DNA of 64,000 nt from an uncultured Clostridia bacterium (GCA_949482135.1 CASYFC010000008.1:14033-78032); one strand, 5' to 3'; positions 32,150 to 39,650 are shown, numbered from the stretch's first letter. Notes: generated by a model from the letters alone, not told the origin. Made by a program: numbers and translations.

Positions 32150-32362
32150 ATGGGGGCAAGAAAATTAAATAATAAACTTAATATTGTATCAAGTAATCTT
32201 TATAAATATCGTACAATGAGAAAAATGTCACAACCAGATATTTGCAGAGAATTAGCTTTAATGGGTGTTACTCTCTATATCAATGATATTTATAAAATTG
32301 AACATATGTTCTCATTTATTTTTGACAACAAAAAAATCCAAGATTTCTCTTGGATTTGGTAG
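32150..32362 (+). pseudogene. Truncated XRE-type HTH ORF reading into the att repeat and tRNA 3' end
   Basis: The N-terminal half looks like an HTH (MRKMSQPDICRELALMGVTLYINDIYKIE). The similarity is then lost and the frame runs through the tRNA terminator and acceptor stem. Confidence 0.45.
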
Positions 32363-32374
32363 CGACGGTGAGAT
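32332..32374. repeat. Proximal att-like repeat (tRNA 3' end plus its terminator hairpin)
   Basis: Partner of 29889-29930, with the 16-nt identical core at 32353-32368. Confidence 0.65.
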
Positions 32375-32433
32375 TCGAACTTACGACCTGCCGGGTATGA
32401 ACCGGATGCTCTAGCCAACTGAGCTACGTCGCC
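32357..32433 (-). tRNA. tRNA with anticodon CAU (elongator Met most likely; lysidine-Ile2 not excluded), CCA encoded
   Basis: Minus-strand cloverleaf: GGCGACG TA GCTC AGTTGGCTA GAGC A TCCGG TTCATAC CCGGC AGGTC GTAAG TTCGAAT CTCAC CGTCGCT A CCA (77 nt). There is one A:C mismatch in the T stem and a G1:U72 pair. Confidence 0.85.
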
Positions 32434-32475: not shown

Positions 32476-32596
32476 GATTTATATTACAAAAATATAAAAA
32501 ATTATTTATAATTTAAATGCTTGAAATAAATTTATACTATTGATAAAATTAATAAATACAAAAGAAATGCAAAAAAATGTGATGGGAGATTTGTAT

Positions 32597-33478
32597 ATGG
32601 AAGATAATAAAGATTTGCTAAATGAAATTGATAAACTAGAAGATAATGAAGAAATTCTAGAAGAAGCAGAAAAAAGTACTTCACATGAAAAAATATTTAC
32701 AATAATTGTTATATTAATTATTATTGTAGCTTTATTTATGATGTATTTATCTTATAAAGGAACATATATTGTTTCTAATAAAGAAAATAAACAAGATGAT
32801 TTTTCAGCATATTTAGATGTTAATAATAACGAAGAAAATAATATACAAAATGAAGAGATAGATTATGAAGAATTAGAAAGACAGAAAAAAGAAAAATTTG
32901 AACAACAAAAAAATAATTTAATAATTACTTCTCAAATATTAGATATTGACGGAAAATTAATTGCAACAATCTATAATGGGAATGAAGAAGGTATTGATAA
33001 TGTATTAGTACAAGTTATTTTTTATAATGGAGAAGACAAACCAATAAAAATTGATGAAAGAACCATAGATGTTTTTGATAGTCAATCAGAGTATTTTTTG
33101 TTTTTTGAACATACACCAAAGGCATATGAAAGATGCGAGTTTTTAATTACTAAAGAGAATTTCTATAATAGTTATAATTCTAACAGAAATAAAATTAGTT
33201 TTTCCTTTGAGGAAAAAAGTGACCAAAATATAATTGAAATTTCAGGAAAAAATGAGTCAGAACATAAAATTCAAAGAGTTAATTTTGCTATTATATACTA
33301 TGATGAAAATGACCAAATAATTGCAATAAGAGAAGGAAGTGAGTATGATATCAAAAAACAAAAAGAATTTAAAATTCAAATAAATAAACAACTATATAGT
33401 TATGATACTTATGAAGATGTACCATATAGCAGATATGAAGTTAGATTATTAAATTCAATGTCATATGTAGAAAAATAA
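32597..33478 (+). CDS. Hypothetical membrane-anchored protein with two similar beta-rich extracytoplasmic domains (293 aa)
   Basis: Tracked ORF starts at 32540, but ATG 32597 has a GGGAG SD 8 nt upstream. Acidic N-terminus, one TM (IFTIIVILIIIVALFMMYLSY), then two segments with a ..V.VIFYNGEDKPI.. / ..FAIIYYDENDQII.. pattern. First gene of a tightly packed 3-gene operon. Confidence 0.65.
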   Translation: MEDNKDLLNEIDKLEDNEEILEEAEKSTSHEKIFTIIVILIIIVALFMMYLSYKGTYIVSNKENKQDDFSAYLDVNNNEENNIQNEEIDYEELERQKKEKFEQQKNNLIITSQILDIDGKLIATIYNGNEEGIDNVLVQVIFYNGEDKPIKIDERTIDVFDSQSEYFLFFEHTPKAYERCEFLITKENFYNSYNSNRNKISFSFEEKSDQNIIEISGKNESEHKIQRVNFAIIYYDENDQIIAIREGSEYDIKKQKEFKIQINKQLYSYDTYEDVPYSRYEVRLLNSMSYVEK

Positions 33479-33488
33479 AGGAGAAATT

Positions 33489-34865
33489 ATGAATTTTTAT
33501 GAAAAAAGATATGAACGAAAATTTTTAAATAGAATTGTTCATACAACACTAAATCCAGATAATCCAGGTGTTGTTAGAATACATTTGGTTCCATCAAAGT
33601 TTTCAATTTTAAAAACAAGACCAAGCATTGTTATTTTAAATGGAAAAGATATTATACCTCTTAATCCAGCTTGGACAATACTTCTTTCAATATTTATTGA
33701 TGAAGTAAATGAACATAAAGGTAATGAAATATCAGATGAGCAGATAGAGAAAATTGTTGAAATTACAATTTCTAGGTTAAAGAAAATTTATAAATTTGCT
33801 AAGGAAGAAAAAGTCAAAGAAGATTTATGGAATATGATTAATTTATTTACATCAATAGCAAATAAAGAAAAGACTGAAATAGATGTTGGACAAATTTCAA
33901 TTGGAGATTTTTCAAAATTTATGAAAGCTCCACATCGTATAGATTTAATGATCAGTTCTATGAAAAAAGATAATCATTGGAATTGTAATCAGCAATGTAT
34001 GCATTGTTATGCTGCAAATCAAAATTTTGCTGAAACACCTGAATTAACAACTGATGAATGGAAGAAAGTAATAGATGTTTGCAAGGATAATTGTATTCCT
34101 CAAATAACTTTTACTGGTGGAGAGCCTACAATAAGAAAAGATTTAGTAGAGCTTGTAGAATATGCAAATTGGTTTGTAACAAGGCTTAATACAAATGGTG
34201 TATTATTGACAAAAAAACTTTGTAAAGAGTTATATGAAGCTAGTTTAGACAGTGTTCAAATTACATTATATTCAAATAATAAGGAAATCCATAATAAATT
34301 GGTTGGAGCAGATAATTTTGATAAAACAATACAGGGAATTAAAAATGCAATAGATGCTGGATTAAATGTAAGTATAAATACACCATTATGTTCATTAAAT
34401 AAAGACTATGTATCAACTCTGAAATTTGCTAAAGAACTTGGAATCATTTATGCATCTTCATCAGGATTAATTGTTACAGGAAATGCCAAAAAAGAAGCAT
34501 CAAAAGAAACTCAACTAACTAAAATTGAAATTACAAAATCTTTAATAGAAGCTTGCGAATATGCTGAAAAACATGAAATGGAATTAAGTTTTACATCTCC
34601 TGGCTGGATTGATGAGGAAATACTAAAAGAATTAAAACTTGATATTCCAGCATGTGGTGCTTGTTTAAGCAATATGGCTGTTTCTCCTGATGGAAATGTT
34701 ATGCCTTGCCAAAGCTGGCTTGGTGAAAAGTCATCTTTAGGAAATATTTTAGAAGATAAATGGGACAAAATATGGAATAATCCAAAATGTAAGAAGATTA
34801 GAAAAAATTCTAGTAAGTCAAGTTTTACTTGTCCTTTGAGAGGAGGTAAAACAAATGAAAATTAA
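33489..34865 (+). CDS. Radical SAM enzyme with a C-terminal SPASM/twitch-like auxiliary-cluster domain and a ~165-aa N-terminal extension (458 aa)
   Basis: CX3CX2C motif CNQQCMHC, GGEP motif (FTGGEPT), C-terminal CGACLSNMAVSPDGNVMPCQSW ... CKKIRKNSSKSSFTCP. SD AAGGAG 5 nt upstream. Confidence 0.85.
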   Translation: MNFYEKRYERKFLNRIVHTTLNPDNPGVVRIHLVPSKFSILKTRPSIVILNGKDIIPLNPAWTILLSIFIDEVNEHKGNEISDEQIEKIVEITISRLKKIYKFAKEEKVKEDLWNMINLFTSIANKEKTEIDVGQISIGDFSKFMKAPHRIDLMISSMKKDNHWNCNQQCMHCYAANQNFAETPELTTDEWKKVIDVCKDNCIPQITFTGGEPTIRKDLVELVEYANWFVTRLNTNGVLLTKKLCKELYEASLDSVQITLYSNNKEIHNKLVGADNFDKTIQGIKNAIDAGLNVSINTPLCSLNKDYVSTLKFAKELGIIYASSSGLIVTGNAKKEASKETQLTKIEITKSLIEACEYAEKHEMELSFTSPGWIDEEILKELKLDIPACGACLSNMAVSPDGNVMPCQSWLGEKSSLGNILEDKWDKIWNNPKCKKIRKNSSKSSFTCPLRGGKTNEN

Positions 34866-35820
34866 CAAAATATTTTTAGTGTTTTTTGTGTTTGCATTAG
34901 CAATACTATTTAATAATATTTGTTTTGCAAAAGATTTAGATCAAATAAATAAATATTATATAACAGTTGATCCTAGAAATGATGGAACTTTAGATATGGC
35001 ATATCATATTGAATGGGAAGTCCTAGATTCTACATCAGAAGGACCTTTAACATGGGTTCAAATTGGAATTCCTAATTCATATGTTGATTCTATAAAAAGT
35101 CCTTCAAGTGAGGTAAAAAGCATAAGATATTATGAAAATAATGGATCATATATAAGAGTAGATTTTAAAAAATCTTATAATGAAGGTGATGTAGTAAAAT
35201 TTGATTTTACTTTTCATCAAAGATATATGTATGAATTAGATTATTCATATTGTACTTACAATTTTACACCAGGATGGTTTGATGATATTGTTGTAAATGA
35301 TTTAAAAGTATATTGGAATGCTGAAAAGGTTACATCAAGTACAGCAGAAGAAACAAATTCGGATAATTATTTAGTATGGTCAGGTAGGCTTGCAAAAGGT
35401 GCAAAATTGAAAACAAAAGTAGAATATCCTAAAAGTGCATTTAATACATTAAATGAAAGTCAGCAAGTAAGTAATGCAGATACGAGTTATAATAGTATTA
35501 ATAACAGAAATTCAATAAATTCAATAAATACAATAATTGTAGTAATAGTTATATTTATTGGATTTACAAATCTTTTGTCTACATTTATGGGAACAGGTTA
35601 CAATAGGCATAGAGGATATGGATATGGAAGACCTTATCATCATCATCACCATCATAATCATTCATCACACCATCATTCATCAACTAATACAAGGAGTTGT
35701 GTAAGCAGTTGTGCATGTGCATGTGCTTGCGCTGGTGGAGGTAGAGCAGGGTGTAGCAAAAAAGACTTTTATGGAACTAACTTAAAAACTAATAATATTA
35801 AAAAAATTTTAAATAAATAA
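34855..35820 (+). CDS. DUF2207-like membrane protein with a His-run and Cys-Ala-repeat C-terminal tail (321 aa)
   Basis: Signal peptide (..NNICFA/KD). Beta-rich ectodomain (YYITVDPRNDGTLDMAYHIEWEVLDS..GPLTWVQIGIPN). One TM (IIVVIVIFIGFTNLLSTFMG). Tail: GYNRHRGYGYGRPYHHHHHHNHSSHHHSSTNTRSCVSSCACACACAGGGRAGCS. The ATG overlaps the radical SAM gene by 11 nt, with a GGAGGT SD inside that gene's last codons. Confidence 0.8.
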   Translation: MKINKIFLVFFVFALAILFNNICFAKDLDQINKYYITVDPRNDGTLDMAYHIEWEVLDSTSEGPLTWVQIGIPNSYVDSIKSPSSEVKSIRYYENNGSYIRVDFKKSYNEGDVVKFDFTFHQRYMYELDYSYCTYNFTPGWFDDIVVNDLKVYWNAEKVTSSTAEETNSDNYLVWSGRLAKGAKLKTKVEYPKSAFNTLNESQQVSNADTSYNSINNRNSINSINTIIVVIVIFIGFTNLLSTFMGTGYNRHRGYGYGRPYHHHHHHNHSSHHHSSTNTRSCVSSCACACACAGGGRAGCSKKDFYGTNLKTNNIKKILNK

Positions 35821-35821
35821 T

Positions 35822-35852
35822 AAAAAGCCTAGATTTTTTTCTAGGCTTTAAA
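35822..35852. terminator. Bidirectional intrinsic terminator
   Basis: 9-bp stem aaagcctag/ctaggcttt, T-rich loop, with A and T runs on both sides. Confidence 0.8.
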
Positions 35853-35854
35853 TT

Positions 35855-36103
35855 TTATTCTTCATCTTTTTTTACTTTGTCAGTTTCTTCCTTTTGGGAA
35901 GTATTTTTGTTGGAATCATCCTTTTTCTTTTTAGCAGTAGGAATAATGAATTTTTTTCTATTATTTACAGAATCTTTTGGTCTTAAAGGATTCATACAAT
36001 CATTTACTTCTGATATGTTTAAAACTGATTCATCACCTATTACAACTTCAATTTCTTCTTCGTTAATTTCTTCTTTTTTATGTTTATTTGATTTTTTTAA
36101 CAT
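35855..36103 (-). CDS. Small Lys/Glu-rich hypothetical protein (82 aa)
   Basis: ATG 36103 has a GAGGTG SD. A perfect consensus promoter lies upstream. The overlapping + strand ORF 35877..36119 is its shadow. Confidence 0.6.
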   Translation of the reverse strand: MLKKSNKHKKEEINEEEIEVVIGDESVLNISEVNDCMNPLRPKDSVNNRKKFIIPTAKKKKDDSNKNTSQKEETDKVKKDEE

Positions 36104-36139
36104 ATTTATCACCTCATAAATAAATTAATGCATAAACAT

Positions 36140-38534: not shown

Positions 38535-39650
38535 ATGGGAAGTAAATTATCACCTGTAATTATAGTGGTATTATTAGTGGTTGTAATTGTTATTGCAGTC
38601 GTTATTTTTGGTCTTTTTACAGGAAAAGGAGGCTTTACAGATACTCCTGGAGAAAATAAAGTTTCAACTAATGAAATTGCTAAACCAAAATTAAATTTAG
38701 AAAAAGAATCTGATGAAAAAGATGTATCATCTGTAAAAATTATAGCAAATGCAACTATGGAAGATGAAAGTGAAATATCAGAAATAGTTCGTCCAGATGG
38801 AACAATTGAAAAAGGAAATTATACTGTTTTTGAAGCAACAGAAAATAAAAAATATACATTTGAAGTTGTTGCTGCAAATGGTCAAAAAGAAAAAGCAACA
38901 ATAGAAGTTACTGAAATTGCTGAAATATCAGCCACAAATCCATATGTTCCAGTAGGATTTTCTGTAATAAATGAAAATGTGGAAGAAGGTTTTGTTATTG
39001 AGGATGAAAATGGAAATCAATATGTATGGGTTCCAGTTGAATCTGGTAGATTAACACGTGGTACAATGTTAGATGGAAAATTTGAAGATTCAGCTTCATC
39101 AGCTACAGCTTTAGTTAATAGTGTTGCAAAATATTACGGATTTTATATTGGAAGATTTGAAGCTTCACAATATAATATGGATGGAGATGTAGTAGCTGCA
39201 AGTATGGCTGGAAAAGTTCCATGGACAAATATAACATACCTAGATGCTTTTAATTATGCAACAGAAGCAGGAGAAAAATTTGGATATGAAGACTGTTTTA
39301 CAGCATTAATAAATAGTTATGCATGGGATACAGCATTAGATTGGATTGATAAAACTCATAACAATTATTCAAAAAATACAGATAATGGAAATTATGATGG
39401 TACAGTACTTCCTACTGGAACTACAGAAAAAGATACAGTAAACTATATTTGCGATTTGGCAGGTAATGTTAGAGAATGGACAACAGAAATATATAAAGAT
39501 TCATCAAATAACAATACTGGTGGAGTAAAACAAAGAGTTATTCGTGGAGGTAGTGCTAATTTAAGAAGAACCCCATCAAGTCATATAGGATATCCAGAAA
39601 ATACATCTGAAACATATTGGGGATTCCGATTAATATTATATAAACAATAA
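38535..39650 (+). CDS. Membrane-anchored protein with one Ig-like unit and a C-terminal FGE-sulfatase (SUMF1/EgtB-like, C-type-lectin fold) domain (371 aa)
   Basis: N-terminal TM. C-terminal pattern ..FYIGRFEAS..VPWTNITY..AWDTALDWI..GNVREWTTE..RVIRGGSA..YWGFRLILY typical of FGE-sulfatase family domains. Confidence 0.7.
   Translation: MGSKLSPVIIVVLLVVVIVIAVVIFGLFTGKGGFTDTPGENKVSTNEIAKPKLNLEKESDEKDVSSVKIIANATMEDESEISEIVRPDGTIEKGNYTVFEATENKKYTFEVVAANGQKEKATIEVTEIAEISATNPYVPVGFSVINENVEEGFVIEDENGNQYVWVPVESGRLTRGTMLDGKFEDSASSATALVNSVAKYYGFYIGRFEASQYNMDGDVVAASMAGKVPWTNITYLDAFNYATEAGEKFGYEDCFTALINSYAWDTALDWIDKTHNNYSKNTDNGNYDGTVLPTGTTEKDTVNYICDLAGNVREWTTEIYKDSSNNNTGGVKQRVIRGGSANLRRTPSSHIGYPENTSETYWGFRLILYKQ

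Follow-up and report, generated by a model that had tools for sequence, protein, structure and literature searches.

Radical S-adenosylmethionine (SAM)/SPASM maturases are known for small crosslinked peptides, and a few of them modify soluble proteins. The analysis presented here concerns a gene pair in which such an enzyme stands beside an integral membrane protein with a Cys-rich tail. The pair lies in a stretch of 64,000 nt from an uncultured Clostridia bacterium (GCA_949482135.1 CASYFC010000008.1:14033-78032); this whole stretch is referred to as the window, and all coordinates are counted from its first letter. The enzyme gene (gene 2) and the membrane protein gene (gene 3) form an obligate, translationally coupled two-gene cassette, and from their sequences it appears rather likely that gene 2 covalently modifies the gene 3 tail in the manner of enzymes that mature peptides made by the ribosome and modified after translation (RiPPs). 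The two genes are as follows.

33489-34865, plus strand: gene 2, a radical SAM enzyme of 458 aa with an N-terminal domain (N-domain) predicted to fold like a RiPP recognition element (RRE) and a truncated, probably twitch-like SPASM domain at the C-terminus
34855-35820, plus strand: gene 3, a protein of 321 aa with a signal peptide, a beta-sandwich ectodomain, one transmembrane (TM) helix and a Cys-rich tail that is probably cytoplasmic

By analogy, the closest chemical precedent for the pair would be StsB of Streptomyces sparsogenes, for which three nested Cys-to-Gly sactionines on the StsA core CxCxCx4GxGxG were shown experimentally (PMC10288494). Like gene 2, StsB is a radical SAM/SPASM-type enzyme; it works with an RRE, for which the N-domain of gene 2 is a candidate. 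The StsA core and the gene 3 tail (CACACACAGGGRAGC) both consist of alternating Cys followed by a Gly-rich acceptor stretch, with different Cys/Gly spacing. StsA is, however, a short leader-bearing peptide and the RRE of its system is a separate protein, StsC, whereas here the proposed substrate is a tail carried by a membrane protein of 300-450 aa.

SkfB (PDB 6efn) was the best PDB match both by profile (1.4e-22) and by predicted fold (3.4e-16 over 417 columns), at an identity of about 18%. It combines a radical SAM barrel with an RRE at the N-terminus and a twitch-type domain for a single cluster at the C-terminus, and the Bacillota form of gene 2 likewise has no Cys for a second cluster. 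Its substrate SkfA differs in being a small secreted peptide with one Cys-Met thioether, and in the NCBIfam skfB model gene 2 scored 58 bits against a cut-off of 300. In the SCIFF/CteB and PapB ranthipeptide systems, too, a Cys-rich core has a SPASM maturase beside it, there one with an RRE, and CteB is among the top structural matches to gene 2. These systems differ in their peptide substrates of about 45 aa, and gene 2 reached no SCIFF or ranthipeptide maturase model. PapA carries C-x3-D motifs with ranthionines, which the C-x3-D/N of the clostridial tails resembles, although this element is not conserved outside Clostridia.

QhpD, with QhpC, and the anaerobic sulfatase-maturating enzymes (anSME) are likewise SPASM enzymes, and the polypeptide they modify stays a functional protein and does not turn into a natural product. 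QhpC is, however, a small soluble enzyme subunit and the anSME targets are sulfatases; neither is a membrane protein tail, and neither family was matched at membership level. On the side of the membrane protein, DUF2207 proteins share a signal/TM segment, a beta-rich ectodomain, a further TM segment and, at the C-terminus, a Gly-rich tail of low complexity (the tails at two of the loci below, L082 and L105, are also Gly-rich), whereas a Cys core and an obligate radical SAM neighbour are not known features of DUF2207 proteins.

Conserved pairing of the enzyme and the tail protein

Related loci (numbered with the prefix L) were collected from two directions for the gene-neighbourhood check that the original prediction had proposed. 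A scan with the gene 3 profile over one genome per species yielded 46 loci, and a metagenome scan seeded with gene 2 yielded 80, giving 126 loci in total. The genome loci were hosted by Lachnospiraceae, Oscillospiraceae, Gemmiger/Allofournierella, other Clostridia, Dehalococcoidia, Aminicenantes, Zixibacteria, Krumholzibacteria, and Sabulitectum. Carriers of the pair are anaerobes of gut, rumen, and sediment, with many sequences from human-gut and rumen Clostridia.

A gene 2 homologue was adjacent in 45 of the 45 informative loci found with gene 3, the contig of the 46th beginning inside gene 3. In the opposite direction, a gene 3 homologue was adjacent in 70 of 70 informative loci; the ten gene 2-seeded loci without one were uninformative, their contigs ending within 255 nt of the enzyme stop codon. 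Adjacency was thus found in 115 of 115 informative loci, and the same pairing was seen in other assemblies. Enzyme homologues standing apart from Cys-rich tails, named by the original prediction as a finding that would speak against it, did not turn up, although two of the paired tails have no Cys block. The tail gene lay immediately downstream on the same strand in 111 of these loci and immediately upstream in four (L028, L059, L121, and L046).

All-against-all clustering of the open reading frames (ORFs) at the loci showed that only the gene 2 and gene 3 families recur. No small ORF, hidden precursor, or third gene was conserved near the pair in the 126 loci, nor was a protease, exporter, or immunity gene. 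Two to three tail-protein paralogues per enzyme were present in L003, L004, and L007, which in this respect resemble multi-precursor RiPP clusters. Three paralogues stand in tandem at L003:6911-9563, the middle one without a tail, and at L004:4125-8221 and L007:2004-6117 copies flank the enzyme on opposite strands.

Enzyme and tail were also found to vary together. In seven non-Bacillota loci the enzyme keeps the full SPASM motif CX2CX5CX3C, and six of the corresponding tails read GGG[G/A]AGC instead of GGGRAGC, the seventh (L046) being cut at GGGR by the contig end. Four tails from Aminicenantes, Zixibacteria, and Krumholzibacteria carry an additional H-x-C-P-x-C downstream. An association of the pair with phage or defence was considered and rejected, as the tail motif gave no match in viral contigs and PADLOC assigned to gene 2 only a generic likeness of its radical SAM core to pVip.

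Domain structure of the radical SAM enzyme

Three regions of gene 2 are distinguished.

33489-33938, plus strand: N-domain (residues 1-150), for which the prediction gives four strands and then three helices, with no family match at sequence level
33984-34007, plus strand: CX3CX2C motif CNQQCMHC (C166, C170, and C173), ligands of the radical SAM [4Fe-4S] cluster according to motif and Pfam
34653-34838, plus strand: auxiliary-cluster region (residues 389-450) with C389, C392-X9-G-X4-C407, C434, and C448, without the CX2CX5C of a full SPASM domain

The original prediction of a radical SAM enzyme from CNQQCMHC was borne out by Pfam, where Radical_SAM (PF04055) matched at 4.6e-22 with 79.4 bits against a cut-off of 29.5. 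The C-terminal auxiliary-cluster region that had been proposed as well is present in a truncated form. It exceeded the curated cut-off of the SPASM model (PF13186; 1.8e-10, 41.4 bits against 21.5, residues 389-443), and C389, C392, C407, C434, and C448 were invariant in the close (Bacillota) homologues. The complete seven-Cys motif of the SPASM subfamily (PF13186/TIGR04085), CX9-15GX4C...CX2CX5CX3C...C, which corresponds to two auxiliary clusters, was not found, as CX2CX5C is missing from the window enzyme and all 118 Bacillota homologues. Because of this missing segment, a single auxiliary cluster and a twitch-like character are probable for the window enzyme.

No curated equivalog of NCBIfam release 20 was reached by gene 2, the best score being 114.9 bits for NirJ2 against a cut-off of 500. 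The 25 listed models all fell far below their cut-offs, with those for haem, MoaA, PqqE, MftC, StsB, SkfB, AlbA, and others at 55-115 bits; AhbD, WgkB, and the KxxxW maturase were further equivalogs in this comparison. The anSME structure 4k37 in the PDB matched at an E-value of about 1e-7 over the core only, and the tail does not contain the C/S-x-P/A-x-R motif. The enzyme therefore did not fall into a characterised family of unrelated function such as anSME, an outcome that had been foreseen as damaging to the proposal. On its sequence, gene 2 is placed in the radical SAM superfamily and the SPASM/twitch group, and in no curated functional family.

The family-profile search of the PDB listed PqqE, GDGT-MAS, SuiB, MoaA, BtrN, and BlsE after SkfB, with CteB and anSME lower. 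The AlphaFold2 (AF2) model of gene 2 had a mean predicted local distance difference test (pLDDT) score of 78 and a predicted template modelling score of 0.81. Its best Foldseek matches, over 417-480 columns, were SkfB, SuiB, CteB, and TigE, all RRE-bearing RiPP maturases that form thioethers or other crosslinks, and these full-length alignments include the N-domain. Matches to anSME, BlsE, MoaA, and viperins covered the core only.

The conserved N-terminal extension runs from residue 1 to about 150-165, in agreement with the 165 aa given in the original prediction, and AF2 places strands at residues 17-58 and helices at 60-124 ahead of the barrel. The resulting beta-beta-beta(-beta)-alpha-alpha-alpha order suggests, at the level of the fold, that the N-domain is RRE-like. 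As modelled, the domain plan of gene 2 is thus that of a RiPP maturase: the RRE-like N-domain comes first, then the radical SAM barrel, and last the SPASM/twitch domain for the auxiliary cluster. Invariant residues of the N-domain are H18, T20, R30, H32, G52, and D112. The stretch H18-x-T20...R30-x-H32 (33540-33584) is unusually invariant across phyla, and since RRE domains are usually poorly conserved, it may mark a specific binding or metal site.

Architecture and Cys-rich tail of the membrane protein

Gene 3 is divided into four regions downstream of an N-terminus that resembles a signal peptide and was modelled by AF2 as a signal-peptide-like helix.

34930-35511, plus strand: ectodomain (residues 26-219) of the AF2 model, with an all-beta core at residues 29-192 of pLDDT above 90
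35512-35586, plus strand: TM helix (residues 220-244) of the AF2 model
35587-35694, plus strand: linker, disordered in the AF2 model, with the juxtamembrane motif G-Y-x-x-H-x-G-Y-G-Y followed in the alignment by a hypervariable His/Tyr/Ser-rich stretch
35695-35775, plus strand: Cys-rich core S281-G307 (SCVSSCACACACAGGGRAGCSKKDFYG), delimited by conservation and proposed as the substrate site

The signal peptide, ectodomain, and single TM helix named in the original prediction are all present in the model. The ectodomain resembles structurally the lumenal domain of ribophorin-I/OST1 and the N-domain of M1 aminopeptidases. The remaining tail is disordered and measures 77 aa; its predicted cytoplasmic placement agrees with the topology proposed earlier, and its length corrects the former figure of about 95 aa. 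We infer a type I membrane protein with a cytoplasmic tail because of the cleaved signal peptide and the Arg/His past the TM helix (positive-inside rule). The six Cys that had drawn attention to the tail lie in residues 281-301 (SCVSSCACACACAGGGRAGCS).

No family of Pfam (2025), NCBIfam release 20, or PADLOC matched the window protein. Its earlier description as DUF2207-like holds only weakly: DUF2207 (PF09972) gave no match at E<0.1 in the window protein, and sub-threshold matches to the DUF2207 N-domain occurred in 10 of 30 relatives, the best at an E-value of 1.9e-4. Seven distant members of the family had no Pfam match whatever. A weak match of the TM-plus-tail region to the YxzE-like 'bacteriocin' family of Pfam led to no helpful connection in the literature. 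With 3123 clusters at E<=1e-3, the gene 3 family is large.

The tail consists of a freely varying linker and an almost fixed core. The sequence S-C-A-C-A-C-A-C-A-G-G-G-R-A-G-C-S-K-K-D-F-Y-G was almost unchanged in the 120 best matches, down to about 40% identity, while the linker past the TM helix varied freely in its His/Tyr/Asp/Ser/Gly content. The juxtamembrane motif is conserved, with Y249 and G254 invariant. A logo of 275 distinct tails read (CA)4-GGG-R-A-G-C-[S/T]-x-K-[D/N]-[F/L]-Y, in which most positions of the core reach 97-100%. Oscillospiraceae and other groups have a different segment in place of KDFY; given this and the GGG[G/A]AGC variants across groups, the universal element of the tail is (CA)n-GGG-x-[A/V]-G-C. 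The 13-codon core occurred in 90 nucleotide versions that differ mainly at synonymous sites, and this free synonymous change means that selection acts on the peptide and not on a DNA or RNA element. A nucleotide repeat or RNA element behind (TGY GCN)n was rejected on the same free third positions and on the Rfam search, which returned a tRNA only.

Variants of the carrier protein were also recorded. In Lachnospiraceae (L004, L005, L010, L014, L017, and others) the tail proteins are 400-450 aa long, and their cytoplasmic linker carries ahead of the Cys core a zinc-ribbon-like CPxCG...CxYCG insert and a conserved SSPNTYVHV. In one protein of 218 aa (P0406), a typical tail (…CACACACAGGGRAGCSVKDFY) is joined to a DnaJ J-domain with a G/F region; this may reflect a chimeric assembly across Gly-rich DNA or another type of carrier for the same tail. 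The short tail-only database proteins returned by a tail-only search for other architectures look like fragments from contig ends or frameshifts and were not taken as evidence of free peptides.

Proposed modification and alternative explanations

An enzyme with the likeness of a RiPP maturase always adjoins a protein with an almost invariant Cys-rich tail, and for this reason a covalent modification of the tail by gene 2 is considered probable. If the tail is so modified, about two thirds of the weight is placed on thioether crosslinks. The N-domain would dock on the gene 3 tail, for which the juxtamembrane G-Y-x-x-H-x-G-Y-G-Y is a candidate site that would serve as an internal 'leader'. A 5'-deoxyadenosyl radical would then take a hydrogen from an acceptor residue, and Cys thiols held at the auxiliary cluster would make intramolecular thioether crosslinks. 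Two patterns appear plausible, namely Cys-to-Gly/Ala sactionines in a hairpin as in StsA (CxCxCx4GxGxG), and a ranthionine of the PapA type at C-x3-D/N. Such a modification would yield a rigid module held by crosslinks and not an exported peptide; the module would probably remain on the membrane protein, since the loci have no conserved protease or exporter and the ectodomain is itself conserved. The system would work much as a sacti- or ranthipeptide pathway does, but the short leader-core precursor that defines such pathways was absent from the loci: beside the enzyme stands a conserved membrane protein of 300-450 aa, and small ORFs are not conserved.

Several observations weigh against such a modification. 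The strand region of the N-domain was modelled with moderate confidence only, and the N-domain alone gave no significant sequence match in PDB or Pfam, PqqD/RRE included, so that the RRE assignment draws on the predicted fold. In the StsB model gene 2 scored 78 bits against a cut-off of 625 and is therefore not an StsB member, and no other sactisynthase or ranthisynthase model was reached. The KDFY segment past the core is not conserved outside Clostridia, and a C-x3-D link can therefore not be universal. In two human-gut loci (L082:3150-3310 and L105:2400-2560) an intact enzyme stands beside a partner whose tail consists of Gly repeats (GGGFGGG...) without a Cys block. Their DNA departs from that of sister loci exactly where the Cys block should begin; these two loci, the only counter-examples found, may represent alleles in decay or faulty assembly of GC-rich repeats. 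Finally, a Cys-rich tail could by itself bind metal or an Fe-S cluster.

This last point leads to the alternative that survives best, which is nevertheless unlikely. The tail would serve as a metal- or Fe-S-binding module or as a docking site by which the enzyme is brought to the membrane, and the actual substrate would be something else, for instance a lipid, a cofactor, or a different protein. It would account for the enzyme being kept beside the Cys-less tails of L082 and L105, and the tail, Cys-rich throughout and in the clade of the window also His-rich, is similar to metal-binding tails. The lipid-modifying radical SAM enzyme GDGT-MAS (7tol) is also among the sequence matches to the gene 2 core. 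However, the His-rich stretch is not conserved, and the best full-length structural matches are RRE-bearing peptide maturases and not lipid or cofactor enzymes. The loci offer no third conserved gene to supply another substrate, and the Ala and Gly positions of the core are near-invariant in addition to the Cys positions, which fits recognition by an enzyme better than simple metal ligation.

Somewhat less probable again is a true RiPP pathway, in which the membrane protein would be an oversized carrier or leader and its modified C-terminal 25-45 residues would be cleaved off and released as a bioactive peptide. The short core stands at the C-terminus behind a disordered linker and is similar to the cores of sactipeptides and ranthipeptides (PMC10288494), and the several paralogues per enzyme at some loci would suit such a pathway. 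Against a release stand the missing protease, exporter, and immunity genes in the 126 loci, the predicted cytoplasmic location of the tail, and the fragment-like appearance of the short tail-only proteins. The ectodomain, moreover, is well conserved and therefore has a function of its own. A change of the tail other than crosslinking, be it Cys to formylglycine as by anSME, epimerisation, or formation of a protein-derived cofactor, is the least probable and is regarded as very doubtful, for although anSME is a SPASM enzyme acting on full-length proteins and appears among the structural and sequence matches, and SPASM enzymes perform many chemistries with PqqE, MftC, AhbD, and NirJ models scoring similarly on gene 2, the tail has no C/S-x-P/A-x-R sulfatase motif and anSME matches the core without the N-domain (about 330 columns as opposed to 417-480 for the RiPP maturases).

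Operon layout and gene 1

Genes 2 and 3 are preceded in the window by a further gene, and the boundaries and signals of the operon are as follows.

32521-32549, plus strand: promoter-like site TTGAAA-17-TAAAAT with TG, 5' of gene 1, by consensus match only
32597-33478, plus strand: gene 1, an ORF of 293 aa for a single-TM membrane protein with a weak DUF5780 match
33479-33483, plus strand: Shine-Dalgarno sequence AGGAG of gene 2, directly past the gene 1 stop codon and 5 nt ahead of the gene 2 ATG
34840-34846, plus strand: Shine-Dalgarno sequence GAGGAGG of gene 3, within gene 2 and 8 nt ahead of the gene 3 ATG
35824-35849, both directions: strong bidirectional hairpin of an intrinsic terminator, 3' of gene 3, which ends the operon

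All three genes lie on the plus strand and are tightly coupled, with a gap of 10 nt between genes 1 and 2 and an overlap of 11 nt between genes 2 and 3. The same junctions, with each Shine-Dalgarno site within or just after the upstream gene, had been given in the original prediction, and independent public gene calls from other assemblies of the same organism contain the identical three products of 293, 458, and 321 aa. An alternative start of gene 1 (TTG at 32540) is less likely.

The coupled layout of three genes thus stands as proposed, but gene 1 falls outside the conserved unit. Its homologues numbered only 31 in 5.8 billion proteins, all from the window's own clade, several of them sharing a contig with the gene 2-gene 3 pair. 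None was present in the 46 genome loci found with the gene 3 profile, and PADLOC gave no match. Gene 1 is thus an accessory confined to its clade, which travels as a lineage-specific passenger in the operon and does not belong to the conserved pair.

Upstream, the operon is bounded by a divergent tRNA-Met(CAT) on the minus strand (32357-32433), the only Rfam match found. The promoter of this tRNA gene (TTGACA-17-TATAAT, 32475-32447) matches the sigma-70 type perfectly, at 12/12, and the gene is followed by a terminator-like hairpin of its own (32357-32334); a remnant-like plus-strand ORF of 70 aa (32150-32362) overlaps its 3' end. On the downstream side, a Lys/Glu-rich ORF of 85 aa on the minus strand (35855-36112), annotated publicly as a gene of 82 aa, runs towards the same bidirectional terminator from the other side; its product contains no Cys and belongs to no family.

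Genomic surroundings of the window

The neighbours of the operon in the window were not conserved with the pair in the clustering of locus ORFs. Three very large plus-strand ORFs of 2598, 3957, and 1909 aa occupy 1186-26910. Domains were scanned in the 2598-aa and 1909-aa ORFs, and both contain NPCBM and F5/8 type C domains and, at the C-terminus, dockerin type I domains, which suggest cellulosome-like glycan-binding surface proteins. Giant repeat proteins (Flg_new) also flank the pair at L127, which is probably a coincidence.

At 27100-29883 (plus strand) lies an SF1 helicase of 927 aa (AAA_11/AAA_12) that ends in a nuclease-like DUF2726 domain. PADLOC matched it to MkoA/MkoC (1e-54 to 1e-55), PDC-S37, and Hhe, so that it may act in defence as a helicase-nuclease. 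The called genes scpB and proS are also among the neighbours. A membrane-anchored protein of 371 aa with an FGE-sulfatase (formylglycine-generating-enzyme-like) domain is encoded at 38535-39650 (plus strand), 2.7 kb downstream of the radical SAM gene, and did not recur in the related loci.

Significance

A full-text literature search covering the motif strings, DUF2207 with radical SAM, and membrane-anchored RiPP precursors returned no description of the pair, subscription-only papers lying outside this search, so that an earlier description is possible. The enzymology is familiar, and the substrate class and the biological role are new. There is some room, though little, for a further reading in which the enzyme builds a protein-derived cofactor or metal-sulfur centre on the (CA)4-GGGRAGC scaffold instead of merely stapling it. 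If this were true, a single-pass surface protein would become a redox- or metal-responsive transmembrane device, with an extracellular beta-sandwich coupled to an enzyme-made cytoplasmic centre, a type of maturation without precedent.

In at least five phyla and thousands of sequences, a radical SAM/SPASM enzyme is here tied to an integral membrane protein's cytoplasmic tail. Should this tail be the substrate, membrane proteins would join the targets of RiPP-type chemistry, and a large uncharacterised protein family outside Pfam, NCBIfam, and PADLOC would be defined. It would also reveal a blind spot in the genome-mining tools for RiPPs, which look only for short precursors.

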